Below are positions 5,087-60,519 of a stretch of DNA of 64,000 nt, in pieces. The notes below the pieces were generated by a model that was not told where the DNA came from, made no database searches, and saw only the letters and a program-made list of their open reading frames with translations. This DNA is from Candidatus Magasanikiibacteriota bacterium (lineage in GTDB: Bacteria > Patescibacteriota > Patescibacteriia > Magasanikbacterales > UBA922). The stretch is taken from assembly GCA_041674805.1 (NCBI GenBank), contig JBAYVA010000001.1:125136-189135 (forward strand), read 5' to 3'. The stretch's first letter is position 1. Every line of letters starts with the position of its first letter. The translations under genes were made by a program, and so were the position numbers.

Positions 5087-5518
5087 ATGTTACCAAGACT
5101 ATGGGATCCATTCGATGATATGGATAATATGGTAAGAAATTTTCCTGCTCTTACCAACAACAATGATTTCAATCGTAAAGGCTTCGTGCCAGCCGTCGAC
5201 GTCTATGAGACAAAAGACGCTGTCGTAGTCGAGACCTTACTTCCTGGTGTCAATCCAGAGCAAGTAGAAGTCAGTGTAGAAAAAGGAGTTTTGACTATTC
5301 AAGGTGAAAGTCAAAGAGAACATGAAATTGATGAAAAAAATTATTATCGCAAAGAAGTGCGTGGTGGATCATTTTTCCGCCAAGTATCTTTGCCAGTTTC
5401 GGTCAAAGAAAATGAAGTAAGTGCTGAATTTGAAGATGGCATACTCAAAATTACTTGTCCAAAAGCTGAGGAAAAGAAAATGAATAAGGTGGATGTGAAG
5501 GTGATTAAAAAACAATAA
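5087..5518 (+). CDS. Hsp20/alpha-crystallin small heat-shock protein
   Basis: ACD motifs: PAVDVYETKDAVVVETLLPGVNPEQVEVSVEKGVLTIQGE...AEFEDGILKITCPK. Confidence 0.85.
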   Translation: MLPRLWDPFDDMDNMVRNFPALTNNNDFNRKGFVPAVDVYETKDAVVVETLLPGVNPEQVEVSVEKGVLTIQGESQREHEIDEKNYYRKEVRGGSFFRQVSLPVSVKENEVSAEFEDGILKITCPKAEEKKMNKVDVKVIKKQ

Positions 5519-5522
5519 TTCT

Positions 5523-5948
5523 ATGATAAATAGATTTGATCCAATATGGGAAGGTCATCAAAAAGATACTAATACTATAAATAAGTATTTACTTATTACA
5601 AGTAGATTATATACTATTGCCATTGTTGTTACTTCATTCTTTGTTAGAATTTTTCTTACTAATTTCAAATCAAGTGAGATAATGTCTGGTATTTTATTAG
5701 TTTCTTTCATGATTACTTCTGCGCTCCTTGTATATAATTTTTCACTTTATAGAGAATTAGCAAGTGTTTTAGTTATTGAAAAGTTAAGAAAAATAATGTT
5801 TTTCATTTGGTTGATTATTTTTTTTCTTTTTAACATATTCCAAATTATTACTTTGTTTGTGAATTATGGATGGTGGATGGTAGTGTTAAATATCATATGG
5901 GGTATAGTTGGTGATTTATTAATAAATAAAGTTATAAAAAAGAATTAG
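5523..5948 (+). CDS. hypothetical membrane protein (4 TM)
   Basis: Hydrophobic segments; starts 5 nt after the hsp20 stop. Confidence 0.4.
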   Translation: MINRFDPIWEGHQKDTNTINKYLLITSRLYTIAIVVTSFFVRIFLTNFKSSEIMSGILLVSFMITSALLVYNFSLYRELASVLVIEKLRKIMFFIWLIIFFLFNIFQIITLFVNYGWWMVVLNIIWGIVGDLLINKVIKKN

Positions 5949-5958
5949 TATTTATTAA

Positions 5959-6004
5959 CTGGCAGTGGTGAACTGAACATTCTAAACTGCCAAGACTTTT
6001 TTCT
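5959..6004 (+). terminator. putative terminator hairpin
   Basis: Imperfect CTGGCAG...CTGCCAAG stem followed by a T-run. Confidence 0.35.
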
Positions 6005-6083
6005 ACATAATAAATATCTTATAATAGTTTGATATGTGGTACGCGTTGTGTGATATGTGAATTAACTAATTAATTTAATAAAT

Positions 6084-6893
6084 ATGGAAAGACGAAATCC
6101 AGAGCATTCATTTTCTACAGGTGCAAAAAAAGTAGAAGAAAAAGAGAAAAAAAAGAGTTTACGAGAACGTCTCATTAATAAATGGACTTTGCTTTTTACG
6201 GCACTAACTGTATTTGCAGGTCATGAAATTTCTTCTGCCGAAAAAAACAAATATAATGATGATTTTGCTGAAAGATTACCTCAAGATCCTGAGTCTTTAG
6301 CAGAAATTGATAAAGCTCTTGATATTGTAGAAGAAGCTATACAAGAAAGAACACAAAGACAAAAAAATAAAGATGTTGAAGAAGAACAACTAGAAAAGCT
6401 TGCGCGTGGTATCCAACGTGAACATGGTTGGAAAGGAGACCAAGAAAAAGCTTTAGTTGATTTAACTGATATTCCTAAAAAGGAAGAATTACCATCGAAT
6501 CAAATGTTCAAAGAAGATTATCAAGCCATTTTTGATGCTCTTCCTAATAAAAATTTTAATCTTGCACCTATAGAGCTTGGATATTTGAATTATCTTATTA
6601 CCAACTCTCAGGATGATTTTGAAGCTGAACTAGATTTTGAGCATGAAGTTGTAAAACCAGAAGAAGATGACAAGGATACTTCTGAATATGTTGTAAGTAA
6701 TTACAAATTAACTGTTGGATTAGAAGGAAAAACACAAGAATTTGTTGCAGGTACATTACAGGAGGTTGCAAAATTAGTTTCTTATACACATGATTTACAT
6801 AGTTTATGGAAATTTTATGAAAGTGGTGTATTAACTGAAGAACAATATCAAAATGATAAAAAGGAATTACAAACTAAACATGGTTTTAATTAA
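6084..6893 (+). CDS. hypothetical protein, acidic, single N-terminal TM; possible SHOCT-like C-terminus
   Basis: ORF only. The C-terminus LWKFYESGVLTEEQYQNDKKELQ resembles the short C-terminal (SHOCT) motif. Confidence 0.4.
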   Translation: MERRNPEHSFSTGAKKVEEKEKKKSLRERLINKWTLLFTALTVFAGHEISSAEKNKYNDDFAERLPQDPESLAEIDKALDIVEEAIQERTQRQKNKDVEEEQLEKLARGIQREHGWKGDQEKALVDLTDIPKKEELPSNQMFKEDYQAIFDALPNKNFNLAPIELGYLNYLITNSQDDFEAELDFEHEVVKPEEDDKDTSEYVVSNYKLTVGLEGKTQEFVAGTLQEVAKLVSYTHDLHSLWKFYESGVLTEEQYQNDKKELQTKHGFN

Positions 6894-6936: not shown

Positions 6937-6977
6937 AAGAAAGATCCCTCGTCGTGCTTTCGCCGACTTCGGGATGA
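6937..6977 (+). promoter_or_regulatory. palindromic GC-rich leader motif, copy A (upstream of dnaK)
   Basis: AAGAAAGATCCCTCGTCG...CGACTTCGGGATGA ends 12 nt before the dnaK ATG. Same motif at 13956, 15877 and 51961. Confidence 0.45.
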
Positions 6978-13907: not shown

Positions 13908-15746
13908 TTACTTTCCTAAAAATTTTTGTTTAAGAAACCTGCCTGCCGGTAGGCTGGGATCCCTCGTCGTATTCTCGACTCGGGATGATTTATGCAAATC
14001 AACTATCGTAAGTTGAAGCTCCCTATTCCCATTCCACTCATTCAAATCAATTTCAAACACTATATCTATTTTATCACCAATTCGCAAAATTTTACACCAA
14101 TTGATTTCACCTTCTTTATCACAAAGACTCCAGCCAATGGTTTTGCGGATTTTGTTGTCTTGTTTGACTGTCAATTTCAAATGTTTGGCGTCTTTGCCGA
14201 CTGTCGTCATGTCAAAGATTTCTACTTCGCGAGCCAGATATTTTGGTCGGTCGTTGTTCATACCAAAAGGTTTGAATTGTTCTAGCAAATCAAACAATTC
14301 CCAATCAACTTCTGTCAGTCTTAGTTCGGCATCTATTTTGATAGTTGAACGCATGTCTAGATCTTTGGTTTTTTCATTATACTTTTCTATCATGTGTGCT
14401 TTGAAATCTGCTAGTTGGTCTTTGTTTGCCAAAGTGAAACCACAGGCCATCGGATGTCCGCCATATTTGAGAAACAAATCAGCTTTTTCTTGGAAAGTCT
14501 CAATAATATTGAAGCCTTCAATACTTCGGCCTGAACCCATTATCTCTTTTTTATTTTCTGACATTACCAAAGTTGGTTTGTAATATTGTTGAACGATTCT
14601 GCCAGCAATAAGTCCGACTAAGCCACCTGGCCAATCTTTGCCCACGACAAAAAGTACGGGTTTGTCCTTTTGGTCTTTTTCGATTTGTTCAATTGCTTTT
14701 TTTAGTAATTCCTCGGTAATTTCTCTACGTTCTTTGTTGTTTTGATCCAGTTCAAAAGCAAGATCAATAGCGTCGGTAGCTCTATCAGTCATCATGAGAT
14801 TGTAGGCAACGTTGGCATGTTTTATTCTGCCAGCAGCATTTATTCGAGGAGCAATTTGGAAACCAATAGTGTAGGCATCAAGATTTTTTTTCATACTGCC
14901 ATCTTGTTCTATGATGCGAGCTTCCATCAAAAGTTTTTGCATGCCGATTCTTTTGGTTTTGTTCAAAACTAGTAATCCATATTTGGTTAGAGTTCTTGAT
15001 TCACCAATCAGTGGTACCATGTCAGCCACGCTAGAAACAGCTACCATATCTAGTAACCATTTTTCGTGAGCTTCATGTTTTTCGCCGTTTGCTAGTAGTT
15101 CATGTTTTTCTTTGTGTTTGATAAGCAAGGCTTGCATCAGTTTGAAAGCCACACCGCCACCAGACAGATTTTTGTCAGGATAAGTTTCTGTAGAAATCTT
15201 AGGATGAATTATAGCAAAAGCTTTTGGTAGTTGCGGAGGAATAGTATGATGATCGGTAATAATCACATCTACTTTTTGCTCATTGGCAAAATCAACTTCT
15301 TTGGTATTACTAATGCCACAATCACAAGTGATGATAAGTTTGGCCCCTTCATTTTTGAGTTCAGTGATAGCTCGTGTATTCAAGCCGTAGCCATCAGTTT
15401 CACGATGGGGGAGAAAAGCGTCAACATTATCATAACCCATGGCTTTGATAGTAGAAACAAGAATAACGGAAGCCGAGACACCATCAGCATCGTAATCACC
15501 ATAGACGATTATTTTTTCTTTTTTGTCTATCGCTTTCATGATTCTCTTGACTGTCTTTTTCATGTCATGAAACAAATAAGGATCATGAATATCTTGGCTG
15601 TAATCTGGATTCAAAAATTCGTCTATATCTTTTTGGGTACGCATGTTTCTGTGGTACAACAAAGAAGCTACGACTTTTGGTAGCTCAGGAAATTCTTCAA
15701 AAAAAGATTGAGGAGGGGATTCGAGTATTTTCCAGGTTTTTTGCAT
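13908..15746 (-). CDS. recJ: single-stranded-DNA-specific exonuclease RecJ
   Basis: DHH (YGDYDADGVSAS, ITCDCGI, DHH) and DHHA1 (GGGHPMACG) motifs plus a C-terminal OB region. The last ~25 codons read through palindromic motif copy C. Confidence 0.85.
   Translation of the reverse strand: MQKTWKILESPPQSFFEEFPELPKVVASLLYHRNMRTQKDIDEFLNPDYSQDIHDPYLFHDMKKTVKRIMKAIDKKEKIIVYGDYDADGVSASVILVSTIKAMGYDNVDAFLPHRETDGYGLNTRAITELKNEGAKLIITCDCGISNTKEVDFANEQKVDVIITDHHTIPPQLPKAFAIIHPKISTETYPDKNLSGGGVAFKLMQALLIKHKEKHELLANGEKHEAHEKWLLDMVAVSSVADMVPLIGESRTLTKYGLLVLNKTKRIGMQKLLMEARIIEQDGSMKKNLDAYTIGFQIAPRINAAGRIKHANVAYNLMMTDRATDAIDLAFELDQNNKERREITEELLKKAIEQIEKDQKDKPVLFVVGKDWPGGLVGLIAGRIVQQYYKPTLVMSENKKEIMGSGRSIEGFNIIETFQEKADLFLKYGGHPMACGFTLANKDQLADFKAHMIEKYNEKTKDLDMRSTIKIDAELRLTEVDWELFDLLEQFKPFGMNNDRPKYLAREVEIFDMTTVGKDAKHLKLTVKQDNKIRKTIGWSLCDKEGEINWCKILRIGDKIDIVFEIDLNEWNGNRELQLTIVDLHKSSRVENTTRDPSLPAGRFLKQKFLGK
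13956..13988. promoter_or_regulatory. palindromic GC-rich motif, copy C (inside the recJ 3' end)
   Basis: GGGATCCCTCGTCGTATTCTCGACTCGGGATGA. Confidence 0.4.
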
Positions 15747-21997: not shown

Positions 21998-22057
21998 TAT
22001 AGCAAAAAAACTTTGATTTGTATAGTCAAGTATATTTTGGTACAATATTATAATAGT

Positions 22058-22141
22058 AAGGCCTAAAAGGCTTAAAATGCTTGAAAAGCTGAAAAAGCCT
22101 TTTAAGCCTTTTGGGCATTTTAAGCCTTTCAAGCTTTTTTT
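22058..22141. repeat. A-tract repeat copy arranged as a long imperfect palindrome (forward units then reverse units)
   Basis: AAGGCCTAAAAGGCTTAAAATGCTTGAAAAGCTGAAAAAGCCTTTTAAGCCTTTTGGGCATTTTAAGCCTTTCAAGC. Confidence 0.6.
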
Positions 22142-23500
22142 ATGCATATAAAATTCTGCGGAGCCGACGAGGGCGTTACTGGTTCTTGTCATCTTTTGGA
22201 TACTGGCAAAATGAAGATACTCATTGATTGTGGGATGTTTCAAGGTGGAGATTTCAATGAAGGAAGAAATCATGATGTGTTTCCTTTTGATCCAAAAGAT
22301 ATTGATGTTTTGTTGGTTACTCACGGTCATTTAGATCATATTGGACGTATTCCAAAATTAGTAAAAGAAGGTTTTGCTGGCAAAATTTACTCTACCAAAG
22401 CGACTCAAGAATTTATGCCTCTTATTTGGTATGATGCTTACAATATTATGTCTTATGACAATCGTAAATTTGGTTATCCTGTTTTGTTTAATGAAGTAGA
22501 TATTGCTGAAGCTCAAGCTCTTTGTCATGGTCTAGATTATCATGAAGAATTGGATTTGGGTCATGATGTCAAAGCTGTTTGGAAAGATGCTGGACATATT
22601 TTTGGTTCAGCTTTTATTGAAATTACAGTTGATGGCAAAAAAATTGCTTTTTCTGGTGATTTGGGAAATGAACAAGTTCCAATTCTCAAAGATACAGAAA
22701 GTTTGAGTGACGATGTTACTTTGGTTGTCTGTGAATCTACTTATGGTAATCGTTTACATGAAGATATAGATACCAGAAAAAGTGTTATTTCTAATTTAAT
22801 TTTGGAAGGTATCAAACGTGGTGGTACTATTATGATTCCAGCTTTTTCACTTGAACGTACTCAAGAACTTTTGTATGAATTGAATCAGTTGAGTGAATAT
22901 GATAATACTTTGCCTCAGGTACCAATTTTCTTGGATAGTCCTTTGGCAATTGATGCTACCAAAGTTTACAAAAAATATGCTGAGTATTATGATAAAGCAG
23001 CTTTTGATTTGCATATGTCTGGAGATGATTTTTTACATTTTCCTCAATTACAAAATACTTATAGTAAACGTGAATCTCAAAAAATAAACAATACTCCTGG
23101 ACCAAAAATTATTATTTCAGGTGCAGGTATGATGAATGGCGGCAGAATTTTGCATCATGCTTTACGTTATTTATCAGATTCTTTGTCTACTCTTATGATT
23201 GTTGGTTATCAAGCAAATGGTACTTTGGGTAGAAGGCTTTTGGAAGGTGAAAAACATGTAAAAGTTATGGGTACAGATGTTGATGTCAGATGTGAAATAA
23301 AAGCCATTGGTGCTTTGTCAGCTCATGGTGATCAAGCAAAATTGTTGAAGTGGCTTGGCACTGGCAAAAAAGTCAAAAAAGTTTTTTGTGTACATGGTGA
23401 AGGCGACGCTTTGACTACTTTTGCAGACAAAATAAAAACTGATTTGAAAAAAGAAGCTTATATTGCTAAGTATGATGAAGTGGTGGAAATAAAGGCTTGA
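22142..23500 (+). CDS. rnj: MBL-fold beta-CASP ribonuclease (RNase J-like)
   Basis: HGHLDHIG metallo-beta-lactamase motif and a beta-CASP region. 452 aa, shorter than canonical RNase J. Confidence 0.7.
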   Translation: MHIKFCGADEGVTGSCHLLDTGKMKILIDCGMFQGGDFNEGRNHDVFPFDPKDIDVLLVTHGHLDHIGRIPKLVKEGFAGKIYSTKATQEFMPLIWYDAYNIMSYDNRKFGYPVLFNEVDIAEAQALCHGLDYHEELDLGHDVKAVWKDAGHIFGSAFIEITVDGKKIAFSGDLGNEQVPILKDTESLSDDVTLVVCESTYGNRLHEDIDTRKSVISNLILEGIKRGGTIMIPAFSLERTQELLYELNQLSEYDNTLPQVPIFLDSPLAIDATKVYKKYAEYYDKAAFDLHMSGDDFLHFPQLQNTYSKRESQKINNTPGPKIIISGAGMMNGGRILHHALRYLSDSLSTLMIVGYQANGTLGRRLLEGEKHVKVMGTDVDVRCEIKAIGALSAHGDQAKLLKWLGTGKKVKKVFCVHGEGDALTTFADKIKTDLKKEAYIAKYDEVVEIKA

Positions 23501-23530
23501 AAGGCTTAAAAAGCTTAAAATGCTCGAAAG
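23491..23530. repeat. A-tract repeat copy
   Basis: AAAGGCTTGAAAGGCTTAAAAAGCTTAAAATGCTCGAAAGG. Confidence 0.6.
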
Positions 23531-23562
23531 GCAATCTTTGTACTAAAAGATTGCCTTTTTTA
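23528..23562 (+). terminator. rho-independent terminator
   Basis: GGCAATCTTT-gtactaa-AAGATTGCC followed by TTTTTT. Confidence 0.7.
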
Positions 23563-23602
23563 TTTGATTTTTATCTAAATTTAAGTTAATATTAGTTTAT
23601 TA

Positions 23603-23649
23603 AAAGCCTTTTTGGTTTTTCTGGCCTTTTGAGCCTTTCAAGCTTTTTT
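23603..23649. repeat. A-tract repeat copy, reverse orientation
   Basis: AAAAGCCTTTTTGGTTTTTCTGGCCTTTTGAGCCTTTCAAGCTTTTTT. Confidence 0.6.
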
Positions 23650-27298: not shown

Positions 27299-27394
27299 AA
27301 TTAAATAAATTATTCCCTTGTATTAAGGGTGAATTACTTTATGTCACTATTCTATAATATTTTAGAAAAACTGTCAATAGAGCCAAAAGCTTCG

Positions 27395-27500
27395 CTAATT
27401 TAGAAATTTTGAATTTTGAATTTTAAAACAATTTTAAAATTTTAAATTTAGAAATTAGAAATTGTTTTAAAATTAAAAATTACTAAATTCAAAATTAAAA
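27395..27500. repeat. AT-rich ~100-bp dispersed repeat (copy 1)
   Basis: Shares TTTTGAATTTTAAAACAAT, TTTAAATTTAGAAATT, AAATTGTTT and AAAATTACTAAATT blocks with 31245-31352. Confidence 0.55.
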
Positions 27501-27558
27501 ACAGCCCCATATTTCATGAGCTGTCTTTTGAGATTATATTTTTTTCAACTAAAACGTC

Positions 27559-31222: not shown

Positions 31223-31244
31223 TGTTTCAATTACTATATAGTTT

Positions 31245-31352
31245 TTAATTTTAAATTTAGCAATTTTGAATTTTAAAACAATGAATAAATTTTTAAATTT
31301 AGAAATTTAAAATTGTTTCGAAATTTAAAATTCCTAAATTACTAAATTTTAA
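31245..31352. repeat. AT-rich ~100-bp dispersed repeat (copy 2)
   Basis: See copy 1 at 27395-27500. Confidence 0.55.
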
Positions 31353-31355
31353 AAT

Positions 31356-33632
31356 ATGTCCTATAATTTATTAAACAAAACAGATTTCGAAAAATTCAAA
31401 AAAAATAATTCTAATAAATTCAAATATGATTTTGAAGGTGGGGCTTATTTGAATTTGCAAAATTTAGATTTGGAAAGTTTGCCTGGTATTGAAGTAGATA
31501 AATTAAATAAAATTGCCACACTCATGCGTGAGCTTATTTTTGCCACTGTTGAGGGAAGTCGCTCGGGTCATCCGGGTGGCTCTAGTTCCAAAGTCGAACA
31601 ATTTCTAGGGCTTACTCTTGGCGGTGCTTTGGCTTTTGATCCACTTGAACCAAAAAATACTTGTCGCGATAGAGTAATTTGGTCAGCCGGACATTGTACA
31701 CCAGGTCTTTATAGTGGTCTTGCTTTGTTTTATGAAAGTTTGAAAAAGAAAGGTGTAAAATTTGATGCCAAAAAGTTACATGCTGTTTTGGCCAGAGATT
31801 TGGCAAAATTTCGACGAGCTGGTGGACTTCCTGGTCATGCTGAAAGTTACACTCCTCTTTCAGATATTTCTACCGGTCCTTCTGGCCATGGTTTTTCGGC
31901 TGCTGGTGGATTAGCTATTACTCACAAATCAGCTGGCACGGGAAGTAAAGTTTGGGTTTTTATGGGTGACGCCGAGAGCGAAGAAGGTATGACTTACGAA
32001 GCTCGTAATCTTTTGCATACTGTTGGTGCTGACAATATGATTGTTTCTCTTGATTACAATAATTTTGGTATTGATGGTGATATAAGTGAAGTATTGTCGA
32101 ATAAATATATCAACAACTGGTTAGGCTTAGGTTGGAATGTGATTGAAATAAATGGTCATAATATTTTGGAGTGTGTCTATGCTTATCGTCTTGCTGCACA
32201 AAAAGTTTTTGACAACAATAATCCAACTGTTGTTATTGCTCATACTATTAAAGGTGAACAATATGGTAGTTTGGAAAACACCAATAAATCTCATGGTGAA
32301 GAAGTAAGTCATGAAGAATATGTAAGAATTGAAAGAAATTTAGATATTAACAAAAATACAGTTTTTCCAGATGCCGAAGGTGATATTAAAGATGATTTAT
32401 CAAGCATTGAATTGGATTTGGATATTGTCCTCTCAACTTACATTGTAAACAGACTAAAAGTCTCGGCCAAAAATATTCCAACTGAAAAAAAAGTTGTAGC
32501 ACAAATGAAAAAAACTTTATCTAAAAGAAAGTTTCAAAGTGTTACTTCAATCAAACGTCCTCTTAAATTGCCAAAAGAACTTATTTTTGAAGCAGTGAAT
32601 AAAGTGGCTACTCGCAAAGCTAGTCAAGCATTTTTTGAATACTTAATGAAAGAAAGTGCTTTTTTCTGGGCTGGAGCAGGGGATTTGTCAGAATCAGTCA
32701 AAACAGATAAGGCTGAAAATGTTTTTGGTGTTATAAATAAACAAAATCCTTACGGTCGTGGTATTCGTTATGGTATTGCTGAACAAAATATGGGAATGAT
32801 GGGCACAGGTATGACACTTGATAGATTGCCAGGGAGTTTTGCTCCAGCTTCTGTAATTGGTACTTATGCAGCGTTTACTTCGATGATGTGCAATGGTATT
32901 CGTGTGGCAGTGATAAATAATCATTTATATCCTGCTCACAAAGGTTTTTTCATTGTACTTGCTAGTCACGACGGACCAGAAGTTGGTGAGGATGGACCTA
33001 CACATCAAGGACTTTATTGGATGAGTATGTTTACAGCTTACCCTGGTATCAAAGTTTATAAGCCAACAGACGCTAACGAAACTATTGAAATGCTTTTTCA
33101 TGCTATCAAAATTGGAGAACCAATTGTACTTTCAGTTTCTCGTCCGGATGTAGCAGTACTAAAACGTGGTAAAAATGCTTGTTGTGGTCAGACAGTGCCT
33201 TCAGCCAAAGAAGCTATCAACGGCGCTTATATTTTCAAAGATTACAAAAATAATGGTAAACAAAAAATGTGTGTAGCTGTCTCGGGTGCAATTGTTTTGA
33301 ATAATTTGTTACAAATTTTACCAGAATTAGAAAATGAAAATAAAGACGTTAAAATTGTAGTAGTAACTTCACCAGAACTTTTTGCAGAATTAAAAAAGAA
33401 AAATAAGAAAAAAGCTGAAAGTATTTTCAATTCAAGTGACAGAAAAGTTTGTGTTACTCTGCATGCGGGCTGGAAAGGATTTTTAAGAGACTTCATTGAT
33501 AATGATTTTTATGATGAACGTTCAATTGGTCTTGAAACTTATTTGGAAAGTGGAAGTGTGGATGAAGTTTATGAAATGGCAAAATTGTCGAGTGAGGATA
33601 TAAAAAAGAAATTGTTGGGTATTAGGTTTTAG
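31356..33632 (+). CDS. tkt: transketolase (single-chain, unusually long at 758 aa)
   Basis: TPP-binding motifs GHPGGS and GDAESEEGMTYEARNL...DYNNFGIDG; pyrimidine-binding and C-terminal domains present. Confidence 0.8.
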   Translation: MSYNLLNKTDFEKFKKNNSNKFKYDFEGGAYLNLQNLDLESLPGIEVDKLNKIATLMRELIFATVEGSRSGHPGGSSSKVEQFLGLTLGGALAFDPLEPKNTCRDRVIWSAGHCTPGLYSGLALFYESLKKKGVKFDAKKLHAVLARDLAKFRRAGGLPGHAESYTPLSDISTGPSGHGFSAAGGLAITHKSAGTGSKVWVFMGDAESEEGMTYEARNLLHTVGADNMIVSLDYNNFGIDGDISEVLSNKYINNWLGLGWNVIEINGHNILECVYAYRLAAQKVFDNNNPTVVIAHTIKGEQYGSLENTNKSHGEEVSHEEYVRIERNLDINKNTVFPDAEGDIKDDLSSIELDLDIVLSTYIVNRLKVSAKNIPTEKKVVAQMKKTLSKRKFQSVTSIKRPLKLPKELIFEAVNKVATRKASQAFFEYLMKESAFFWAGAGDLSESVKTDKAENVFGVINKQNPYGRGIRYGIAEQNMGMMGTGMTLDRLPGSFAPASVIGTYAAFTSMMCNGIRVAVINNHLYPAHKGFFIVLASHDGPEVGEDGPTHQGLYWMSMFTAYPGIKVYKPTDANETIEMLFHAIKIGEPIVLSVSRPDVAVLKRGKNACCGQTVPSAKEAINGAYIFKDYKNNGKQKMCVAVSGAIVLNNLLQILPELENENKDVKIVVVTSPELFAELKKKNKKKAESIFNSSDRKVCVTLHAGWKGFLRDFIDNDFYDERSIGLETYLESGSVDEVYEMAKLSSEDIKKKLLGIRF

Positions 33633-49740: not shown

Positions 49741-49811
49741 TTCGGGGATAGGGATTCGAACCCCAATAGTCAGGATCAAAACCTGAAGTCCTACCATTAG
49801 ACGATCCCCGA
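49741..49811 (-). tRNA. tRNA-Gln (anticodon TTG)
   Basis: Hand-folded cloverleaf: acceptor TCGGGGA/TCCCCGA, D-stem GTCT/GGAC, anticodon stem TCAGG/CCTGA with loop TTTTGAT, T-arm GGGG-TTCGAAT-CCC. Confidence 0.8.
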
Positions 49812-50492: not shown

Positions 50493-50496
50493 ATGT

Positions 50497-50548
50497 TTGA
50501 AAATGCTTAAAAGGCTTAAAATGCTGGAAAAGCTAGAAAGGCTAATTA
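50497..50548. repeat. A-tract repeat copy
   Basis: GAAAATGCTTAAAAGGCTTAAAATGCTGGAAAAGCTAGAAAGGCT. Confidence 0.6.
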
Positions 50549-50585
50549 TATTTATATTTCAAGCCTTTTGAACTTTTTTGTTTTT

Positions 50586-51425
50586 TTAATTTTTTTGTGA
50601 AATCATTTTTTTATATAATAAAATTACTTCTTTTGCTTCTTTGACATCATGCACTCGTAAGATTTTAGCACCTTTGGTCAGAGCTAGAGTGTTTAGTACA
50701 GTCGTGCCATTTAAGGCTTGCTCGGGAGTCGTGTTAATTACTTTGTTTATCATTGATTTTCGGGAAAAGCCAACTAATATAGGTAATCCAAATTTTTGAA
50801 AGATTTGCAAATTATTCAAAAGTTCATAATTGTGTTCTACAGTCTTGCCAAAACCAAAACCAGGATCAATGATAATATTTTTGACACCAAGTTTTTGGAG
50901 CTTGTTTATTTTTTCTGTAAAAAATTGTAATTCTTCTTCACAAATATTTTCATAACTTGGATTGTCTTGCATGGTTTGTGGTGTACCTTGCATATGCATA
51001 ATAATATATGGTACTTGCAAGTCAGCGACAGTTGTAAACATTTTTTCGTCCATGTTACCGGCAGAAATATCGTTGATAATACTAGCACCAGCTTGGATAG
51101 CTTGTTTGGCTACAGTACTACGGAAAGTATCAATTGAAATGACGATGTCAGGAAATTTTGTATTTAATAATTGGATAACAGGAATAACTCTGCTTAGTTC
51201 TTCTTCTTCGCTCACATAGTCAGCACCTGGGCGAGAAGAGTAGCCACCGATATCTACAAAAGTTGCACCATGATCTATCATTGTTTGGACTTTTTTCAAG
51301 ATGGTTTCTTGTCCAGAATTTTTGCCACCATCATAAAAAGAATCTGGTGTAATATTCAAAATACCCATTACATGAAGTTCATTTAGGTTTATTTCTTTAT
51401 TTTTTAGGGTAATGATATTTTTCAT
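50586..51425 (-). CDS. folP: dihydropteroate synthase
   Basis: ILNITPDSFYDGG, DIGGYSSRPG, pterin-binding barrel motifs. Confidence 0.85.
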   Translation of the reverse strand: MKNIITLKNKEINLNELHVMGILNITPDSFYDGGKNSGQETILKKVQTMIDHGATFVDIGGYSSRPGADYVSEEEELSRVIPVIQLLNTKFPDIVISIDTFRSTVAKQAIQAGASIINDISAGNMDEKMFTTVADLQVPYIIMHMQGTPQTMQDNPSYENICEEELQFFTEKINKLQKLGVKNIIIDPGFGFGKTVEHNYELLNNLQIFQKFGLPILVGFSRKSMINKVINTTPEQALNGTTVLNTLALTKGAKILRVHDVKEAKEVILLYKKMISQKN

Positions 51426-51508
51426 AATTTGATATTTTTATATCATCTATTATCTTTAGTATAACCTTTTTCATATGATATGGGAATACTTATACACATA
51501 TTGTGTGT

Positions 51509-51558
51509 TTGTTTAAGTTTTGTTTCAATGCTATAATACCTATACCTGGGGTATAGGT
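51509..51558 (+). promoter_or_regulatory. csoR promoter (TTGTTT-N17-TATAAT) with a perfect 9-bp inverted-repeat operator ACCTATACC-TGG-GGTATAGGT immediately after the -10
   Basis: -35 at 51509-51514, -10 at 51532-51537, operator at 51538-51558. It resembles CsoR-type GC-cored pseudo-palindromes. Confidence 0.5.
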
Positions 51559-51582
51559 TATTTATTATTAAAAACAAGTTAT

Positions 51583-51867
51583 ATGCAAACAAATTTAAGT
51601 CCAAACAAACAAAAAGCTTTACTCAATGCCAAAAAAGCTTATACCTCACTTGGTAAAATTATGAAAATGTTGGAAGAAAATAAATATTGTGTAGATATTA
51701 TGCAACAAAATTTGGCAGTAATAGGACTCTTAAAATCTGCCAATAATTTACTTTTGGAAGGTCATCTAAAATCTTGTTTCAAAAATGCGATTGTTAGTAA
51801 CGATGACGTCAAACAAGAAGAAAAAATTCAAGAGATTATCAAAGTTACGAAGTTGTCACAGAAATAG
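51583..51867 (+). CDS. csoR: CsoR/RcnR-family metal-sensing transcriptional repressor
   Basis: YCVDIMQQ (Cys), EGHLKSC (His/Cys), DUF156 helical core. Start trimmed to the ATG at 51583; the upstream extension translates the operator. Confidence 0.6.
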   Translation: MQTNLSPNKQKALLNAKKAYTSLGKIMKMLEENKYCVDIMQQNLAVIGLLKSANNLLLEGHLKSCFKNAIVSNDDVKQEEKIQEIIKVTKLSQK

Positions 51868-51960
51868 TAATTATCAAATAACAATTAATAACTAATAATT
51901 AATTTAATTTAAAATTTTATTTAGTTTGAAATATTTTGTTAAATAAATAAGTATAATTTT

Positions 51961-51997
51961 AAGAAAGATCCCTCGTCGTATTCTCGACTCGGGATTA
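51961..51997 (+). promoter_or_regulatory. palindromic GC-rich leader motif, copy B (upstream of the HMA membrane-protein gene)
   Basis: AAGAAAGATCCCTCGTCGTATTCTCGACTCGGGATTA, directly after a TATAAT and 12 nt before the ATG. Confidence 0.45.
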
Positions 51998-52008
51998 TAT
52001 AAAAAACT

Positions 52009-53358
52009 ATGAGCCAGTACAAAAAAATCTATATCAATGGTATGACTTGTGTGTCGTGCGAGCATCTTATTTCTGAAGATGTAAAAAAAATACCAAACGT
52101 TGAGAAAGTAGAAGTCTCACACAAGACTCAAATTGCGCAAGTCTATTTTTCAAACGAAAAACCAGATAGTCAAGAAATAATCAAGACGATTGAAAAATTG
52201 GGTTATAGCGCTTCCGAAAATCCGATTGACAAAAAAGAAAAGAAAAACAAAGCGACAGGTGCACAGTGGGCTTGGTCACTTTTTATTGTTTTTTGTATTT
52301 ATCTAGTTTATAAATACTTTTCTTGGATCGGAGTTTTTGATTGGATTCAAATTGATTCCAAAAATATTGGTTATGGTGCTGCTTTTCTCATCGGTATTGT
52401 GGCTTCAATGTCTACTTGTCTGGCTGTTGTTGGAGCGGTGGTTATGTCTTTTGGTGCCAAATACAAAACTGTAGAAAATAAGTTTAGCAAAAATGCCAAA
52501 CCTCATTTACTTTTTCATGCTGGACGTATCGGAAGTTTTTTCTTGTTGGGTGGATTGCTAGGGATTCTTGGCAACTTCGTCCAATTTTCAGCAAGTGTAC
52601 TTAGTATCTTTACTATTTTGATTGCTCTTATACTTTTCTGGCTGGCCTTAAATATTTTGGGATTTTTGCCATCGATGACAACTCTAGGGATTCACATGCC
52701 AAAAAAAAGTATGGGTGTTTGGAATAAATTGAAAGATTCGGAACATGCCATGGCTCCGATTCTTTTGGGAGCTTTTACTTTTTTCTTGCCTTGTGGTTTC
52801 ACTCAGAGCATGCAACTTTTTGCCGTTAGTTCGGGGAATTTTTGGGTCGGTGGTCTGACTTTGGCTATTTTTGCTCTTGGAACTAGTCCAATATTATTTA
52901 GTATTGGGATGGCGAGTAGTAAAGCTAGTAGCAAAAAAAATGTGGTGATGCAAAAAGTAATTGGTTTTATTATTCTTGCTTTTGCTTTTTATACTTTGTC
53001 ATCTGGATTAGCTGTTCGTGGTATTGGTTTGACTGATTTTTTGAAAAATACAAATGCACAAAGTAATTCTGCAGTATCTATCGTAAATTCAGAAGGTGTG
53101 CAAGTAGTTAAAATGGCGGTGGAATATAGTGGTTACAATCCTGAAGTGATAAAAATAAAAGCAGGTGTGCCAGTGCGTTGGGAAATAGATGGTAAACAAG
53201 TGACTGGTTGTACTAGTGAAATTGTGGTGCCGGATTTGAATATTAAGAAAAAATTAAATCAAGGTTTAAATATTGTAGAATTTACAGCAACAGAAAAAGG
53301 AACTTTGAATTTTAGTTGTTGGATGGGGATGGTGAGAGGGAAGTTTATTGTGGAATAG
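52009..53358 (+). CDS. HMA-domain / DsbD_2-like (TauE-CcdA-like) membrane / C-terminal cupredoxin-like fusion protein
   Basis: N-terminal GMTCVSCEHL; TM region with paired Cys (SMSTC, FLPCGF); C-terminus NPEVIKIKAGVPVRWEIDGKQVTGCTSE...FSCWMGM. Confidence 0.65.
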   Translation: MSQYKKIYINGMTCVSCEHLISEDVKKIPNVEKVEVSHKTQIAQVYFSNEKPDSQEIIKTIEKLGYSASENPIDKKEKKNKATGAQWAWSLFIVFCIYLVYKYFSWIGVFDWIQIDSKNIGYGAAFLIGIVASMSTCLAVVGAVVMSFGAKYKTVENKFSKNAKPHLLFHAGRIGSFFLLGGLLGILGNFVQFSASVLSIFTILIALILFWLALNILGFLPSMTTLGIHMPKKSMGVWNKLKDSEHAMAPILLGAFTFFLPCGFTQSMQLFAVSSGNFWVGGLTLAIFALGTSPILFSIGMASSKASSKKNVVMQKVIGFIILAFAFYTLSSGLAVRGIGLTDFLKNTNAQSNSAVSIVNSEGVQVVKMAVEYSGYNPEVIKIKAGVPVRWEIDGKQVTGCTSEIVVPDLNIKKKLNQGLNIVEFTATEKGTLNFSCWMGMVRGKFIVE

Positions 53359-53371
53359 TCCTGAATTGGTT

Positions 53372-53465
53372 CTCCCCCTAGTAGGGGGAGTTAGAGGGGG
53401 TCTATCTTTGAGCTAGACGTTTTATCTTGCTAAAGACCCCTCCTAGCCTCCCCTAATAGGGGAGG
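53372..53465 (+). other. cluster of three GC-rich hairpins between the copper genes
   Basis: CTCCCCC-TAGTA-GGGGGAG (53372-53390), GAGGGGGTCT...AGACCCCTC (53394-53442), CCTCCCC-TAATA-GGGGAGG (53447-53465). Confidence 0.5.
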
Positions 53466-53510
53466 AAATCGTTAAGTAAATTTAAAATTTAAAATTTTAT
53501 AAAAAATCTT

Positions 53511-55649
53511 ATGAAAAAAGATACTCTCAAAATTGAAGGTATGCACTGCGCTTCATGTGCGGTCAGTATCGAACGCAGTTTGCAAAAACAGCCTGGTATG
53601 AAAAGTGCTAGTGTGAATTATGCTTTAGCACAAGCTTATCTTGAATATGATGAAAAGCAAGTCAAAGATGAAGATCTTGCCAAAGCTGTAGCGAGTGCCG
53701 GGGATTACAAAGTCATGATTGCTGAAGCCAAAGACAAAACAAAAAATAATATCAAAAAAAGTTTTCAAAAATTTGTTTGGTCACTTATTTTCACTTTGCC
53801 GATGCTCGTGGCAATGTTTTTTGAAATGGCTATGTGGTTTCCTTGGGTTGCTCTTGCTTTGTCATTTATAGTTGTCTTTGTGATTGGTTTTCAATTTCAT
53901 CGTGGTATGCTAAGTCAACTGAGACATTTTCAAGCCAATATGGATACACTTGTTTCTGTTGGAACTTCTTCGGCCTTTTTTTATAGTGTTTATGCTATGA
54001 GTATTGGTAGTCCTCTATATTTTGAGACAGCTGCCACTATTATCATGCTTATTTTGCTTGGAAAATATTTGGAAATTAAAAGTAAAGGACGAGCGTCAGA
54101 AGCTATAAAAAAACTTTTTGCGCTTGGTGTGAAGAAAGCTCGTCTGCTAGAAAATAATAAAGAAAAAGAAGTTGTTGTTGAAGATTTACAAGTTGGTGAT
54201 ATCTTGCTTGTCAAAGCAGGGGAGAAGATTCCGCTTGATGCTAAGATTATAGAAGGTAGTACTTCTATTGATGAATCAATGCTGACTGGTGAAAGTGTGG
54301 CTGTGGAAAAAAACATTGGAGACCAAGTTTTCGCGGCAACTATCAATGGTACAGGAGTTATCAAAATACAAGTAAGTAAAATCGCTAGCGAAACTATGCT
54401 TTCCAAGATTATAAAATTGGTAGAGCAAGCTCAAAGTAGCAAAGCACCAATGCAAAAGTTGGTGGACAAAGTCTCAAGTATTTTTGTGCCGAGTGTGATT
54501 GTGATTGCTGTAGTCACTTTTGCAATTTGGTATTTTTTGCTAGGCGCGGGCTTTGAAGCTAGTATTATCAACGCAGTAGCAGTGCTCGTCATCGCTTGTC
54601 CTTGTGCTTTGGGTCTAGCTACACCGACAGCTATCATGGTCGGTAGTGGTAAGGGTGCAGAAAAAGGAATTTTGATCAAAGATTCTGAGAGTTTAGAAAT
54701 AGCCCACAAAATCCAAGTGGTGATGTTTGATAAGACTGGTACTTTGACACAAGGCAAACCAGAAATCACCAATATTCAGGTAATAAAAAGTAATTTAGTG
54801 GAAAATGATGCCTTAATATTAGCTTGTGCTTTGGAAAAACAAAGTGAACATTCACTTGCCTTGGCTTTTGCTAAATTTGCTACAGAAAAAAGTTTGACTA
54901 TTTCGGAAGCTAAAAAAGTTCAAACAGTAAAAGGTAGAGGAATAAAAGGTGTAATAAATAATCAAGAAATATTTTTGGGTAATGCCAAATTTGTTGTTGA
55001 AGAAAAAGTGAAGATAAACAAAGACGCTGAAGAAATTTTTGAAAATTATGCGGAAAAAGGCAAAACACCAATTTATCTTTTTGATAAGAACGAAATCTTG
55101 GCTGTCATCGCTGTAGCTGATATTTTGCGTGAGACTGCCAAAGAAGCGGTACAGAAATTGCAAGACAAAAATATTGAAGTCTACATGATTACAGGTGATC
55201 ATCGCAAAACTGCTGAGGCTATTGCTAATAAATTGGGAATTAGCAAATTTGTGGCTGAAGTCTTGCCCCAAAATAAGGCAGAAGAAGTGAAGAAGCTACA
55301 AGCTCAAAACAAAGTCGTGGCATTTGTTGGCGACGGTATCAACGACGCTCCTGCGCTCGCACAAGCCGATTTGGGGCTAGCTATGGGTGGTGGCAGTGAT
55401 ATTGCCCTAGAAACAGGAAATATCGTCCTAACCAATAGTAATCCAGTCAAAGTCTATGAGGCGATAACTTTATCAAAGAAGACTTTTTCAACTATCAAAC
55501 AAAATTTGTTTTTTGCTTTTTTCTACAATGTTGTGGCTATTCCACTGGCAGCTTTGGGATTACTCAACCCGATGATTGCGGCTTTGGCTATGAGTTTGAG
55601 TAGTTTTTCTGTAGTAGTAAATAGTTTAAGAATTAAAATATCTAAATAA
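53511..55649 (+). CDS. copA: copper-translocating P1B-type ATPase
   Basis: HMA GMHCASCA, CPC, DKTGTLT, GDGINDAP. Confidence 0.92.
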   Translation: MKKDTLKIEGMHCASCAVSIERSLQKQPGMKSASVNYALAQAYLEYDEKQVKDEDLAKAVASAGDYKVMIAEAKDKTKNNIKKSFQKFVWSLIFTLPMLVAMFFEMAMWFPWVALALSFIVVFVIGFQFHRGMLSQLRHFQANMDTLVSVGTSSAFFYSVYAMSIGSPLYFETAATIIMLILLGKYLEIKSKGRASEAIKKLFALGVKKARLLENNKEKEVVVEDLQVGDILLVKAGEKIPLDAKIIEGSTSIDESMLTGESVAVEKNIGDQVFAATINGTGVIKIQVSKIASETMLSKIIKLVEQAQSSKAPMQKLVDKVSSIFVPSVIVIAVVTFAIWYFLLGAGFEASIINAVAVLVIACPCALGLATPTAIMVGSGKGAEKGILIKDSESLEIAHKIQVVMFDKTGTLTQGKPEITNIQVIKSNLVENDALILACALEKQSEHSLALAFAKFATEKSLTISEAKKVQTVKGRGIKGVINNQEIFLGNAKFVVEEKVKINKDAEEIFENYAEKGKTPIYLFDKNEILAVIAVADILRETAKEAVQKLQDKNIEVYMITGDHRKTAEAIANKLGISKFVAEVLPQNKAEEVKKLQAQNKVVAFVGDGINDAPALAQADLGLAMGGGSDIALETGNIVLTNSNPVKVYEAITLSKKTFSTIKQNLFFAFFYNVVAIPLAALGLLNPMIAALAMSLSSFSVVVNSLRIKISK

Positions 55650-55825
55650 ATTGTTATAAAAAAATTAATCCACTGTTTTTATAATGGATTTTTTTTGCTT
55701 TTTGTGATACAATAGCAATGTATTTATTGGCTAATTTTAGCTAAAAATGCTTATTTTACTATTGACAAAAGAGCATTTTTGTGCTATACTTGGCTGTTTT
55801 AAATCTACTATAATCATTTATTTAT

Positions 55826-57325
55826 ATGAAAAAGTATCTTCTATATTTCATTAGTCTTTTCGTCGCTATCGTGACTGTCTTTTTTGCTACGGGTGAAGAA
55901 ACTTTGGCCGCTACATATCCAGCTGGTAGTCTTATCAAATTGTCTAGTAAATCAGCAATATATTATGTTGGTTCTGATAATTTGAAGTATCTTATACCTG
56001 ATGAAGTTACTTTCAAAAGTTGGTATGATAATTTTTCTGAAATAAAAGTGTTGTCAAGCAAAGATTTCAATAGTGTCAAAACTGCTAAATACAATGTAAC
56101 TATTCGTCCTATAAAACAATTGGTAAAATTTTCTAATAGTAATAAAGTTTATGTAGTAGATACAGCAGCTAGATTGCGTTGGGTTGTGGATGAAAAAACT
56201 GCCAAAAAATATTATGATGATGATTGGAACAAAAAAATTGTAATTTTGTCTAGTAGTAGATTTGATGATTATCGTTTGGCTTCTGATTTGGATAGTAAGA
56301 CTATTTTTTCAAAAACACGTGTAGCTAATTCTAGTAATGATATTAATGCTGAATTAAAAAACAGAAAAGTCTTAGTGGAAAAAACAACATCTGTAAGTTC
56401 AAATAATACGACAGTAGAAGTTTCAGAACCTTTTTTGAAGTACATGTCTGAAAATTTGAAATATAGTTTGCAACCAAAATTTTCTTCTACCGTGAATAAT
56501 TATTTTATGAATGCTCAATTTTCAGAGATAACTCTCAATTTGAAATTGGCTGTTGTAGACAAAAATCATAAAATTTATGTAAATGATGTTCCTGTTAATA
56601 ATGCTAGTAGTATCAAATTAGCTTTGTCAATTGGAAAAAATATGTTTAAGATAAAAGTTGTAAGTAATACTGGTAAAGAAAATATTTACAATTTGGAAGT
56701 TTTACGTGAACAAGCCGCTAACAATAGTTATTTAAAATCTCTTACTGAAAATTTGAATGCAAAACTTGATCCATTGTTTGATCCAAGTATCAAAGAATAT
56801 GAAATAAAAGCTGATTATACTGAAAGTGTCTTGAAATTGACTTTGCGTGCTGATGATATCAAATCTTCTATTTATGTAAATGAAGAATTATTGAAGAGTA
56901 AATATTATGGTACCAAGAGTTTGTTACTTTCTTCTGGCGAAAACAAAATAATTGTCAGAGTAGTAGCTGAAAATGGCTATAGTAGAGAATACAAATTGAC
57001 AGTAACTAGATACAAATATCCAAAATTAGGTGACAATGATTTATCTTCATTGAAAATAAGTGGTATTGTTGATACACTTTCACCAGTCTTTGATCCAAAA
57101 CAATCATTGTATTATTTACAAGCCAATGAAGATGAAGATCGCATAGTGATTACGGCCAAAGCAAAAAATAAAAATGCTAGAGTAATAATTGATGGTAGTT
57201 ATACTACTTCTAAATCAGTTTATCTAGATTATGAAGAAAATGAAATCTTTGTAACTGTTGAGATTTCAGGTTATCCTGAATTCACCAAAAAGTATAAAAT
57301 AAGAGTTTATAGAGATTGGGAATAA
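55826..57325 (+). CDS. secreted surface protein with three cadherin-like beta-sandwich repeats
   Basis: Signal peptide; repeated blocks ending ...YxLxVTR (e.g. NGYSREYKLTVTRY). Confidence 0.5.
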   Translation: MKKYLLYFISLFVAIVTVFFATGEETLAATYPAGSLIKLSSKSAIYYVGSDNLKYLIPDEVTFKSWYDNFSEIKVLSSKDFNSVKTAKYNVTIRPIKQLVKFSNSNKVYVVDTAARLRWVVDEKTAKKYYDDDWNKKIVILSSSRFDDYRLASDLDSKTIFSKTRVANSSNDINAELKNRKVLVEKTTSVSSNNTTVEVSEPFLKYMSENLKYSLQPKFSSTVNNYFMNAQFSEITLNLKLAVVDKNHKIYVNDVPVNNASSIKLALSIGKNMFKIKVVSNTGKENIYNLEVLREQAANNSYLKSLTENLNAKLDPLFDPSIKEYEIKADYTESVLKLTLRADDIKSSIYVNEELLKSKYYGTKSLLLSSGENKIIVRVVAENGYSREYKLTVTRYKYPKLGDNDLSSLKISGIVDTLSPVFDPKQSLYYLQANEDEDRIVITAKAKNKNARVIIDGSYTTSKSVYLDYEENEIFVTVEISGYPEFTKKYKIRVYRDWE

Positions 57326-57334
57326 AAAATAAAA

Positions 57335-57366
57335 AAAACTCTCGTAACAACGAGAGTTTTTTATTT
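57335..57366. terminator. bidirectional terminator
   Basis: AAAAAAAACTCTCGT-aaca-ACGAGAGTTTTTTATTTT. Confidence 0.7.
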
Positions 57367-60448: not shown

Positions 60449-60519
60449 TTCGGGACTAGGGATTCGAACCCCAATAGACAGGACCAGAACCTGCCGTCCT
60501 ACCATTAGACGAGCCCCGA
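60449..60519 (-). tRNA. tRNA-Gln (anticodon CTG)
   Basis: Same scaffold as the 49741 tRNA with anticodon loop TTCTGGT; acceptor TCGGGGC/GTCCCGA. Confidence 0.8.

Follow-up and report, generated by a model that had tools for sequence, protein, structure and literature searches.

A CsoR-type copper operon from Magasanikbacteria with a probable gene-less copy of a dispersed palindromic element between a copper-domain fusion gene and copA

The CsoR-regulated copZA/cso operons of Mycobacterium tuberculosis, Bacillus subtilis, and Streptomyces lividans are autoregulated and combine a PF02583 repressor bearing the x-C-H-C ligand fingerprint with a P1B ATPase; the known CsoR operators are pseudopalindromes, with a TAC-N9-GTA dyad around a G tract, that overlap the promoter (PMC3902906). 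In Streptococcus pneumoniae, copY-cupA-copA encodes, in this order, a repressor, a membrane-attached cupredoxin-fold Cu(I) protein, and CopA (4F2E; Neubert et al. 2017, PMC5646241), and DsbD/CcdA/ScsB conduits, which have two conserved intramembrane cysteines, have been tied to copper tolerance (PMC7785015). Among dispersed repeats, repetitive extragenic palindromic (REP) sequences and REPINs are short palindromes rich in G+C that occur singly or as inverted pairs (doublets) spaced 20-100 bp apart; a doublet can adopt either separate hairpins or a single long one, an unpaired tetranucleotide stands beside the stem, the sequences are extragenic and lie mostly between co-directional or convergent genes, and in REPtrons inverted copies lie on either side of the associated gene, which encodes a REP-associated tyrosine transposase (RAYT) (Bertels & Rainey 2011, PMC3116915; Di Nocera et al. 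2013, PMC3733652). Here we analyzed a 64,000-nt stretch (the window) of contig JBAYVA010000001.1 from a Candidatus Magasanikiibacteriota bacterium, in which csoR, a gene for a fusion protein of HMA, DsbD_2, and CupA-like domains, and copA stand in a row with a G+C-rich triple hairpin between the last two genes (Table 1). The operon can be counted as a new member of the CsoR-CopA kind, its CupA-like domain standing in a fusion context that is new. From the comparisons below, we consider it probable that the locus is a standard CsoR-repressed copper-detoxification operon, the fusion-copA spacer of which has been colonized by a gene-less copy of a dispersed palindromic element.

Table 1. Positions of the features of the copper locus in the window
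Feature	Position	Strand	Basis
-35 element TTGTTT of the csoR promoter	51509-51514	+	Direct sequence reading
Extended -10 element TGcTATAAT (TG at 51529-51530, TATAAT at 51532-51537)	51529-51537	+	Direct reading
Predicted CsoR operator, perfect 9-3-9 palindrome ACCTATACC-TGG-GGTATAGGT, overlapping the transcription start	51538-51558	+	Dyad, conservation
csoR, 94 aa, ATG at 51583	51583-51867	+	PF02583
29-nt hairpin repeat GATCCCTCGTCGTATTCTCGACTCGGGAT, located 13 nt before the fusion gene; second, unrelated dispersed family	51967-51995	+	Exact second copy
Fusion gene, 449 aa: HMA (aa 7-66), DsbD_2 membrane core (aa 124-327), CupA-type cupredoxin Cu(I) domain (aa 361-448)	52009-53358	+	Pfam
98-nt palindromic repeat element, gene-less	53370-53467		Inverted arms, folding, nhmmer copies
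Hairpin B, CTCCCCC-TAGTA-GGGGGAG, then TTAG	53372-53390		Direct reading
Central stem-loop, GAGGGGGTCT...AGACCCCTC, then CTAG	~53394-53442		Direct reading
Hairpin A', CCTCCCC-TAATA-GGGGAGG	53447-53465		Direct reading
copA, Cu(I)-exporting P1B-1 ATPase, 712 aa, one N-terminal HMA domain	53511-55649	+	Pfam, TIGR01511, CPC motif
Possible weak intrinsic terminator, AATCCA-12 nt-TGGATT and T run, after copA	55667-55697	+	Direct reading, inference

The palindromic element in the fusion-copA spacer

An earlier reading of the locus, made without database searches (the sequence-only reading), gave positions for the promoter, palindrome, open reading frames (ORFs), and hairpins, all of which agreed with our direct reading. 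The element began 11 nt past the stop codon of the fusion gene, leaving 43 nt before copA, and its GC content was 51% in surroundings of 32-37% (about 31% for the whole window). Its hairpins were the sole C4...G4 hairpins in the window, where the pattern CTCCCC-N3-9-GGGGAG had two matches against 0.00 expected. Taken together, the three hairpins also made up a long imperfect inverted repeat with two arms of 34 nt, and the element folded nearly equally well as one long hairpin (-49.7 kcal/mol, plus strand) or as three hairpins (-50.5 kcal/mol, minus strand), with folding energies ranging from -49.7 to -53.6 kcal/mol and z about -3.5. This structure reflects palindromic DNA, in which either one long hairpin or three can form. 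Rfam 15 gave no match in 51000-56000 at E values up to 10, and a gathering-score search of the window and 18 loci bearing copies returned only tRNAs. The element was likewise unmatched in the phage collection. The 19-mer GGGGGAGTTAGAGGGGGTC from it occurred on just two viral contigs.

The fusion-copA spacer was compared among related operons (loci fetched for comparison are designated by L numbers). It measured 152 nt in the window and 135 nt in L126, which had the same element at about 90% identity and a second, longer copy upstream of csoR. The 338-nt spacer of L128 had the same termini with a differing interior made of other hairpin repeats, and the distant L254 had other GC hairpin repeats in 176 nt. 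In L001/L127/L252 and L002-5, the spacer was 186-193 nt long with 12% GC and consisted of an AT-rich palindromic repeat, whereas that of L251 was 18 nt long and held no repeat. The presence of the AT-rich repeat in relatives lacking the GC-rich element indicated that this spacer has been colonized by different repeat families from one lineage to another. The L251 operon, with a csoR-fusion gap of 1 nt and a fusion-copA gap of 18 nt, looks like a compact, ancestral form, and a gene-less repeat would have been inserted into a spacer of this 18-nt kind. The AT-rich repeat itself (GAATTTTAAAACAAT...ATTGTTTTAAAATT...CCTAAATT) was located at 7354-7539 in L001 and 7315-7507 in L002, and was also present in the window at 27381-27501 and 31223-31373.

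Copies of the element family were identified by nhmmer, and a genome collection was scanned with the hairpin motif and metagenomes with the 19-mer. Arms occurred on at least 120 genome contigs and at least 120 metagenome contigs from many phyla, with contig GC contents of 0.31-0.59. In another Magasanikbacteria genome (L020), a copy with about 91-93% identity (6697-6794) lay between gmd and fcl, with a single arm upstream of gmd. Arm matches were found at four loci on four contigs of the Patescibacteria metagenome-assembled genome (MAG) STC_93, two of them full copies; RIFOXYD12_FULL_33_17 had three copies (one full and two single arms), L207 had three to four arm matches, and a Moraxella plasmid had a single arm between narG and narH. 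The sequence-only reading had suggested a search for further copies of the CTCCCC-TA[AG]TA-GGGGAG type: many were found in other genomes, whereas the 64-kb window held a single copy. Near-identical copies in independent assemblies ruled out an assembly artefact.

Full copies shared one design. The 5' half read TTC-CCCCTCC-loop-GGAGGGG, TTAG, and GGGTGGTC..., leading into a variable self-complementary centre, after which the 3' half read ...GACCCCCTC, TAAC, and TCCCCC-loop-GGGGGAG-AA. Stems were taken from each sequence separately and column-wise covariation was dropped, since variable loop lengths put the stems out of register in the MAFFT alignment. Both terminal hairpins were perfect and the central stem was present in 24 of 25 full copies, and the stems varied with the folding kept (CCCCTCC vs CCTCCCC; CTCTCCC/GGGAGAG; GGTCTGAAC vs GGTTAC vs GGTCAC). 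The loops of the two arms of an element tended to be complementary. By gene context, 21 full copies lay between co-directional genes, two between convergent genes, and none between divergent genes; the two orientations of the element relative to the genes occurred 13 and 6 times. Longer copies were also seen (L126 ~515-700, L120 3263-3390, L134 667-769, and L151 12368-12473), in which extra G+C-rich segments were symmetric in both arms, nested, and mutually complementary.

In being extragenic G+C-rich palindromes placed mostly between co-directional or convergent genes, present as singlets and inverted doublets with an unpaired tetranucleotide beside the stem and alternative one-hairpin or separate-hairpin folds, these copies resembled REPs and REPINs, and some enclosed a gene between inverted copies as REPtrons do (PMC3116915, PMC3733652). 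However, the tetranucleotides of the window family were TTAG/CTAG/CTAA (YTAG/CTAA) and not GTAG or CGTC (PMC3733652), the arm had an extra G/C run pairing across the centre, near-identical arms were shared among several phyla whereas REPs are mostly confined to one species or genus, and the gene between the arms encoded a DUF559 protein (PD-(D/E)XK, Vsr-like) and not an HUH tyrosine transposase. No ORF with HUH/Y motifs of the RAYT/IS200 type was found in 1.74 Mb of fetched loci by a crude regular expression, which is a weak test. MITEs (miniature inverted-repeat transposable elements) and palindromic elements derived from IS200/IS605 matched the element in length (~100 nt), terminal inverted repeats, subterminal hairpins, lack of coding capacity, and presence/absence polymorphism among close relatives, but for our element we saw no target-site duplication and found no IS-type transposase, and its arms are palindromes in their own right. 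The element has terminal inverted repeats, and the ends of its copies, when aligned, showed no target-site duplication in a comparison that lacked an exact empty site. Searches of open-access literature text yielded no relevant match to the arm sequences and nothing specific on repeats in the candidate phyla radiation (CPR)/Patescibacteria.

The element is probably a gene-less REPIN/MITE-like palindromic repeat, outside the cop regulatory design. Among the explanations that the sequence-only reading had offered for the spacer, a REP-like insertion was the only one fitting the evidence, namely absence from the spacers of the closest operons, occurrence at unrelated intergenic sites in both orientations, and no match in Rfam. 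Several points weigh against this account of the locus. In three lineages (the window, L126, and L128), this position was occupied by the element or a variant with the same ends, which could mean retention by selection and not common descent, and a structure this stable near a stop codon could well change expression. Only one copy was present in the window, so that multiplicity in this genome was deduced from relatives, and neither a target-site duplication nor a mobilizing enzyme was found in the window. On the side of the operon, CsoR binding, copper induction, and co-transcription are each what we infer.

DUF559 genes beside the arms and alternative readings of the hairpins

A small ORF preceding a single arm in L020 was used as a seed, and 11 related ORFs were found in the fetched loci, 10 of which had a C-run/G-run hairpin 6-44 nt after the stop codon. 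The five ORFs tested belonged to DUF559 (PF04480, E values of 1e-31 to 1e-34), the closest structure being 3HRL, an 'endonuclease-like protein'. The same two arms flanked a DUF559 gene in inverted orientation in L020 (A arm 5049-5117, gene 5147-5500, B arm 5522-5555), L146, L055, and L011, and in L167 and L227 the DUF559 gene lay between perfect 33-nt inverted repeats. The inner boundary CTCAAAGAT(A/G)GACCCCC was common to gene-bearing and gene-less copies, and arms around DUF559 genes were found in Patescibacteria, Cyanobacteria, Deinococcus, and Proteobacteria. Further DUF559 genes with such hairpin arms alongside, often inverted on both sides, were observed in L063, L240, and the plasmid loci L257-L269.

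Because the loci had been fetched for containing the hairpin, four controls were run. Within the hairpin-selected loci, a 3' hairpin was present at 8 of 9 DUF559 ORFs against 80 of 1284 other ORFs (6.2%; Fisher p = 3e-9). Among plasmid and chromid loci chosen by protein similarity, perfect C4/G4 hairpins stood beside the gene in 11 of 14 DUF559 loci, most on both sides, and two more, from N. gonorrhoeae and E. coli, had degenerate hairpins; a Pseudanabaena DUF559 locus showed a 40-nt exact inverted repeat, and a Photobacterium locus showed AACCCCACC-TAG-CCTCCCCC-loop-GGGGGAGG, which follows the grammar of the window arm. On viral contigs, also chosen by protein similarity, hairpins flanked 9 of 24 DUF559 loci (five on both sides), with complementary loops in L284-L286, and hairpin density was 1.42/kb near the DUF559 gene vs 0.26/kb elsewhere (P = 2e-7). 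Some E. coli strains have, at the 3' end of the DUF559 gene ycjD, a 50-nt sequence belonging to a repeat with a median of 12 copies per E. coli genome. These results indicated that the association between DUF559 genes and the arms is real, though not universal; it had strong statistical support in three samples selected in different ways and extended to E. coli ycjD. DUF559 might move the arms, home into them, or simply be their neighbour.

In E. coli K-12 (L270 3041-3761), the ycjD-fabI spacer contained CCCCTCGCC-CCTCT-GGGG-AGAGG-GTTAG-GGTGAGGGG, the related repeat being only downstream of ycjD. We take this to be the repeat named 'BoxC' in the work of Bergler et al. (1992) and Bachellier et al. 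A search for 'boxC' in open-access text returned pneumococcal BOX papers only. The ycjD-adjacent repeat was similar to the window element in its succession of a C/G-run hairpin, TTAG, and a G run, but it had low identity to the element and consisted of single two-tier hairpins and not of inverted doublets. DUF559 genes were also seen between the subunit genes pntAA and pntAB or seemingly splitting methyltransferase-like genes (PglX, DUF1156), in the Sphingomonas plasmid L263 and the cyanobacterial plasmids L256/L257/L259, as would be expected of an invasive cassette.

The window copy looks like the gene-less form of a DUF559-associated element. One possible origin, compatible with insertion of a dispersed repeat into the spacer, is that a DUF559 homing-endonuclease gene uses the element as its landing pad or has left it behind as a remnant, in place of a repeat that spreads by itself; the gene-less copies would then be empty targets or deletion derivatives of a DUF559 cassette. 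The six loci in which the same two arms surround DUF559 genes, the shared inner boundary, and the enrichment statistics speak for this origin; against it, no DUF559 gene was present among all ORFs of the window, 15 of the 24 DUF559 genes on viral contigs were without such hairpins, and the hairpins could simply be terminators or insertion hot-spots, so that we put it forward with reserve. With slightly greater reserve, we propose that the triple hairpin is the gene-less form of a mobile-element class in which double-hairpin inverted arms (hairpin, YTAG, and G/C run) surround DUF559, which would mobilize the arms or home into them, as a counterpart of the REPtron with a different nuclease. This class would span Patescibacteria, Cyanobacteria, Deinococcota, and Proteobacteria, including the E. 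coli ycjD-adjacent repeats, and would probably also occur in Bacteroidota (a Prevotellaceae MAG and rumen contigs). No link between DUF559 and repeats was found in open-access literature text, so a prior description is possible.

Explanations at the RNA level fared less well. The sequence-only reading had proposed an intercistronic RNA structure controlling the differential stability or processing of the transcript, naming occurrence of the hairpins at many unrelated intergenic sites as the outcome that speaks against it, and the hairpins did recur at such sites. A selected RNA element setting the ratio of csoR and the fusion gene to copA, as a 3' stabilizer, processing site, or partial attenuator, would accord with the very stable fold just past the stop codon, with the occupied site in the window, L126, and L128, with the tight placement of full copies elsewhere between co-directional genes, and with the effects of this kind that REP elements exert in E. 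coli (reviewed in PMC3733652). However, the most similar operons lacked the element or carried unrelated repeats, with one spacer of 18 nt, and the copy between gmd and fcl, the single arm between narG and narH, and the occurrence in both orientations pointed to an incidental consequence; we regard selection for such a role as unlikely. As the gene-less repeat that we favour, the element would, when transcribed, form a structure of about -50 kcal/mol, which at most would modulate decay or translation of the flanking cistrons, as REP does in E. coli; any effect of the stems on copA expression, mRNA decay, or translation would at most be incidental.

A terminator splitting csoR and the fusion gene from an independently transcribed copA would fit the G+C-rich stems downstream of a stop codon. 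It was rejected because there was no U run: no T/U run followed any stem of the element, and the terminator scan was silent at 53370-53467. Moreover, the consensus scan revealed no promoter-like site in the 43 nt preceding copA, a scan of the window with the operator pattern showed no second CsoR site upstream of copA, and copA of L251 begins 18 nt after the fusion gene, all of which make a terminator very unlikely. With no separate promoter for copA, transcription must be able to pass through the element. Finally, a metal-responsive, riboswitch-like RNA sensing copper or a related signal, which the sequence-only reading had also considered, has in its favour only the position upstream of copA and can practically be dismissed, given the lack of an Rfam match, the lack of conservation in orthologous operons, the occurrence of the element in non-metal contexts and on both strands, and a perfect palindromic symmetry such as DNA repeats, but not ligand-binding RNAs, typically show.

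The copper operon and its products

The initial reading of the locus as a copper operon with csoR, an operator, a three-domain fusion protein, and copA was supported and sharpened by domain assignments, ligand residues, and the conserved dyad. The csoR product matched PF02583 with an E value of 4e-16 (59.6 bits; cut-off 22.8), and its closest solved relative was M. tuberculosis CsoR (2HH7, E 7e-12), with Y35, C36, H61, and C65 at identical positions. C36, H61, and C65 form the Cu(I)-type x-C-H-C fingerprint and not the RcnR/FrmR/CstR pattern, and residue 3 is Thr, not His. In CopA, the E1-E2_ATPase, Hydrolase, and HMA (aa 5-64) domains were above the Pfam cut-offs, the copper-subfamily model TIGR01511 scored 594.7 bits (cut-off 397), and the CPC motif was read directly in the translation as ACPCALG.

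The -35 element lay 17 nt from TATAAT and agreed with the consensus TTGACA at 3 of 6 positions, a weak fit because of which the csoR promoter was absent from the list of the consensus promoter scan. By eye, a TTG(Y)WW hexamer 17 nt 5' of the -10 element was found in the window, L001, L002, L126, and L128, and each of the close relatives had a TTG-type -35 element 17 nt from TATAAT or TATAGT, with the -10 element abutting the palindrome. The operator pattern occurred once in the window vs 0.01 sites expected, and among 254 fetched loci the palindrome was found in orthologous csoR promoters only and in none of the other ~240. Promoter and palindrome were kept, with compensatory changes, in six related lineages; in L251, the palindrome was altered symmetrically to ACCTGTACC-TAT-GGTACAGGT, leaving the dyad intact. 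The window operator has a TAC/GTA dyad and GGGG like the operators of the copZA/cso operons, but its inner spacing is TAC-N5-GTA in place of TAC-N9-GTA, it has a second, outer ACC/GGT pair, and its G tract is just 4 nt long. From these features, 51538-51558 probably acts like a CsoR operator of variant geometry, with CsoR binding itself predicted. An 11-nt block, ACTTATACACA, at 51489-51499, about 33 nt upstream of the csoR -10 element, was invariant in five related loci and variant in L251 within diverged surroundings; read on the minus strand as TGTGTATAAGT, it may be the -10 region of a divergent folP/Gmad2 transcript.

The 1-nt and 18-nt spacers of L251 argued for a single transcript from the CsoR-controlled promoter. 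Binding of Cu(I) at C36/H61/C65 would release CsoR from the operator, and csoR, the fusion gene, and copA would then be transcribed as one polycistronic mRNA. All close relatives kept the order csoR-fusion-copA, with a cadherin-like gene and then a radical-SAM gene after it. The terminator-like sequence after copA was not flagged by the scan because it has just two G-C pairs, and the gene after copA had its own strong promoter-like site at 55762-55790 (11 of 12 matches in the scan). A perfect 9-bp inverted repeat between the convergent cadherin-like and radical-SAM genes (57336-57360) looks like a bidirectional terminator; further perfect 9-bp inverted repeats with G+C in the stem were seen in the window at 39561, 62657, and 3203.

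The domain calls of the fusion protein passed the Pfam cut-offs, with 47.7 bits for HMA, which is a CopZ-like domain, 108 bits for DsbD_2, and 40.8 bits for Cupredoxin_1. The protein was 100% identical to an NCBI protein from a Candidatus Magasanikbacteria MAG and had more than 1400 matches; all three domains were present in 109 of the best 120 according to precomputed Pfam assignments, and named sources were nearly all Patescibacteria. Invariant in 40 homologues were C14 and C17 of the HMA CxxC motif, C137, H246, and C262 of the membrane core, and C401, C437, M439, and M441 of the C-terminal domain. In the AlphaFold (AF2) model (pLDDT 79.5), the best PDB fold match by Foldseek was S. pneumoniae CupA (4F2E), with a target-normalised TM-score of 0.91 and 34% identity, and the CopA metal-binding domain 4F2F was also matched. 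By phmmer, the C-terminal domain matched CupA with an E value of 2.4e-13, aligning C401/C437/M439/M441 with C74/C111/M113/M115, so that the cupredoxin fold with C...CxMxM has both the fold and the sequence of the CupA-type binuclear Cu(I) site.

The gene order of repressor, cupredoxin-fold Cu(I) protein, and CopA thus recalls S. pneumoniae copY-cupA-copA, and the C-terminal domain shares fold, sequence, and all four ligand residues with CupA. In contrast to that operon, the repressor of the window is CsoR and not CopY, and the CupA-like domain is joined to an HMA domain and a seven-helix DsbD_2 core, whereas CupA has a single N-terminal anchor helix. From lysine-rich loops and seven predicted helices, the positive-inside rule would put the HMA domain on the inner side of the membrane and the CupA-like domain on the outer side. 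CupA, on the other hand, is presumably cytoplasmic, given that it passes Cu(I) on to the metal-binding domain at the N terminus of CopA. Because it is fused after the HMA domain and seven predicted helices and is placed outside, we refer to the domain as CupA-like and not as a CupA orthologue.

Like the DsbD/CcdA/ScsB conduits, the core has a DsbD/CcdA-like trait, one invariant Cys per half (C137 and C262), and is linked to copper genes. A DsbA-like gene accompanied it in L254, a Parcubacteria relative (1662-6692), in which a 60%-identical fusion gene stood after DUF3105 and a gene for a DsbA-like protein of the thioredoxin fold, and before copA, with no csoR immediately upstream. However, the core fits PF13386 (DsbD_2), its score of 19 bits against the DsbD_TM model PF02683 was below the cut-off of 27.1, and a metal-transport role is equally possible. 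The role of the fusion protein is most likely copper handling on the outer side of the membrane. CupA binds Cu(I) and can reduce Cu(II) via C74/C111, and the source re-reducing those cysteines has been stated to be unknown (PMC5646241). The core Cys pair may deliver reducing equivalents, as in CcdA/ScsB, or pass Cu(I), possibilities that we rank about equally; the arrangement suggests that a CcdA-like conduit could be the electron source on which CupA-type domains depend for reducing and holding copper.

Other repeats of the window and significance of the locus

The 29-nt hairpin repeat before the fusion gene had an exact copy at 13958-13986 and a diverged third copy at ~6940-6977, and folded with -13.7 kcal/mol. 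Variants were present in L001, L002, and L128 before the fusion gene, and the repeat was absent from L251. Its pattern was (TTTAAGAAA)GATCCCTCGTCG...CGACTCGGGAT, and each copy stood 5-13 nt before a start codon in the sense of the gene, the genes being a DnaK-like ORF (ATG at 6989), an ORF with ATG at 13992, and the fusion gene; this repeat could be a hairpin element of 5'-UTRs. Arrays with a 9-nt period, AAGGCTTAA/AAAGCTTGA, were observed in both orientations at many intergenic sites (12708, 16034, 22049-22140, 23483-23649, 33788, 43391, and 50493-50551). Two tRNA genes on the minus strand (49741-49811 and 60449-60519) lay in 93-nt regions that, flanks included, were 85% identical.

Conspicuous hairpins in a cop operon are not to be mistaken for a copper riboswitch or regulator, and the clean annotation of this locus is a CsoR-regulated operon with a selfish repeat. 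The HMA-DsbD_2-CupA-like protein, common in Patescibacteria, offers a concrete, testable model for how a CupA-type copper site may be kept reduced. The arms of the element are nearly identical across genomes of 31-59% GC and enclose DUF559 genes far above chance. If DUF559 is the partner nuclease of these arms, a role could be assigned to this very common domain of unknown function, which is also that of E. coli YcjD, and a class of dispersed repeats would gain a mechanism testable with purified protein and oligonucleotides.

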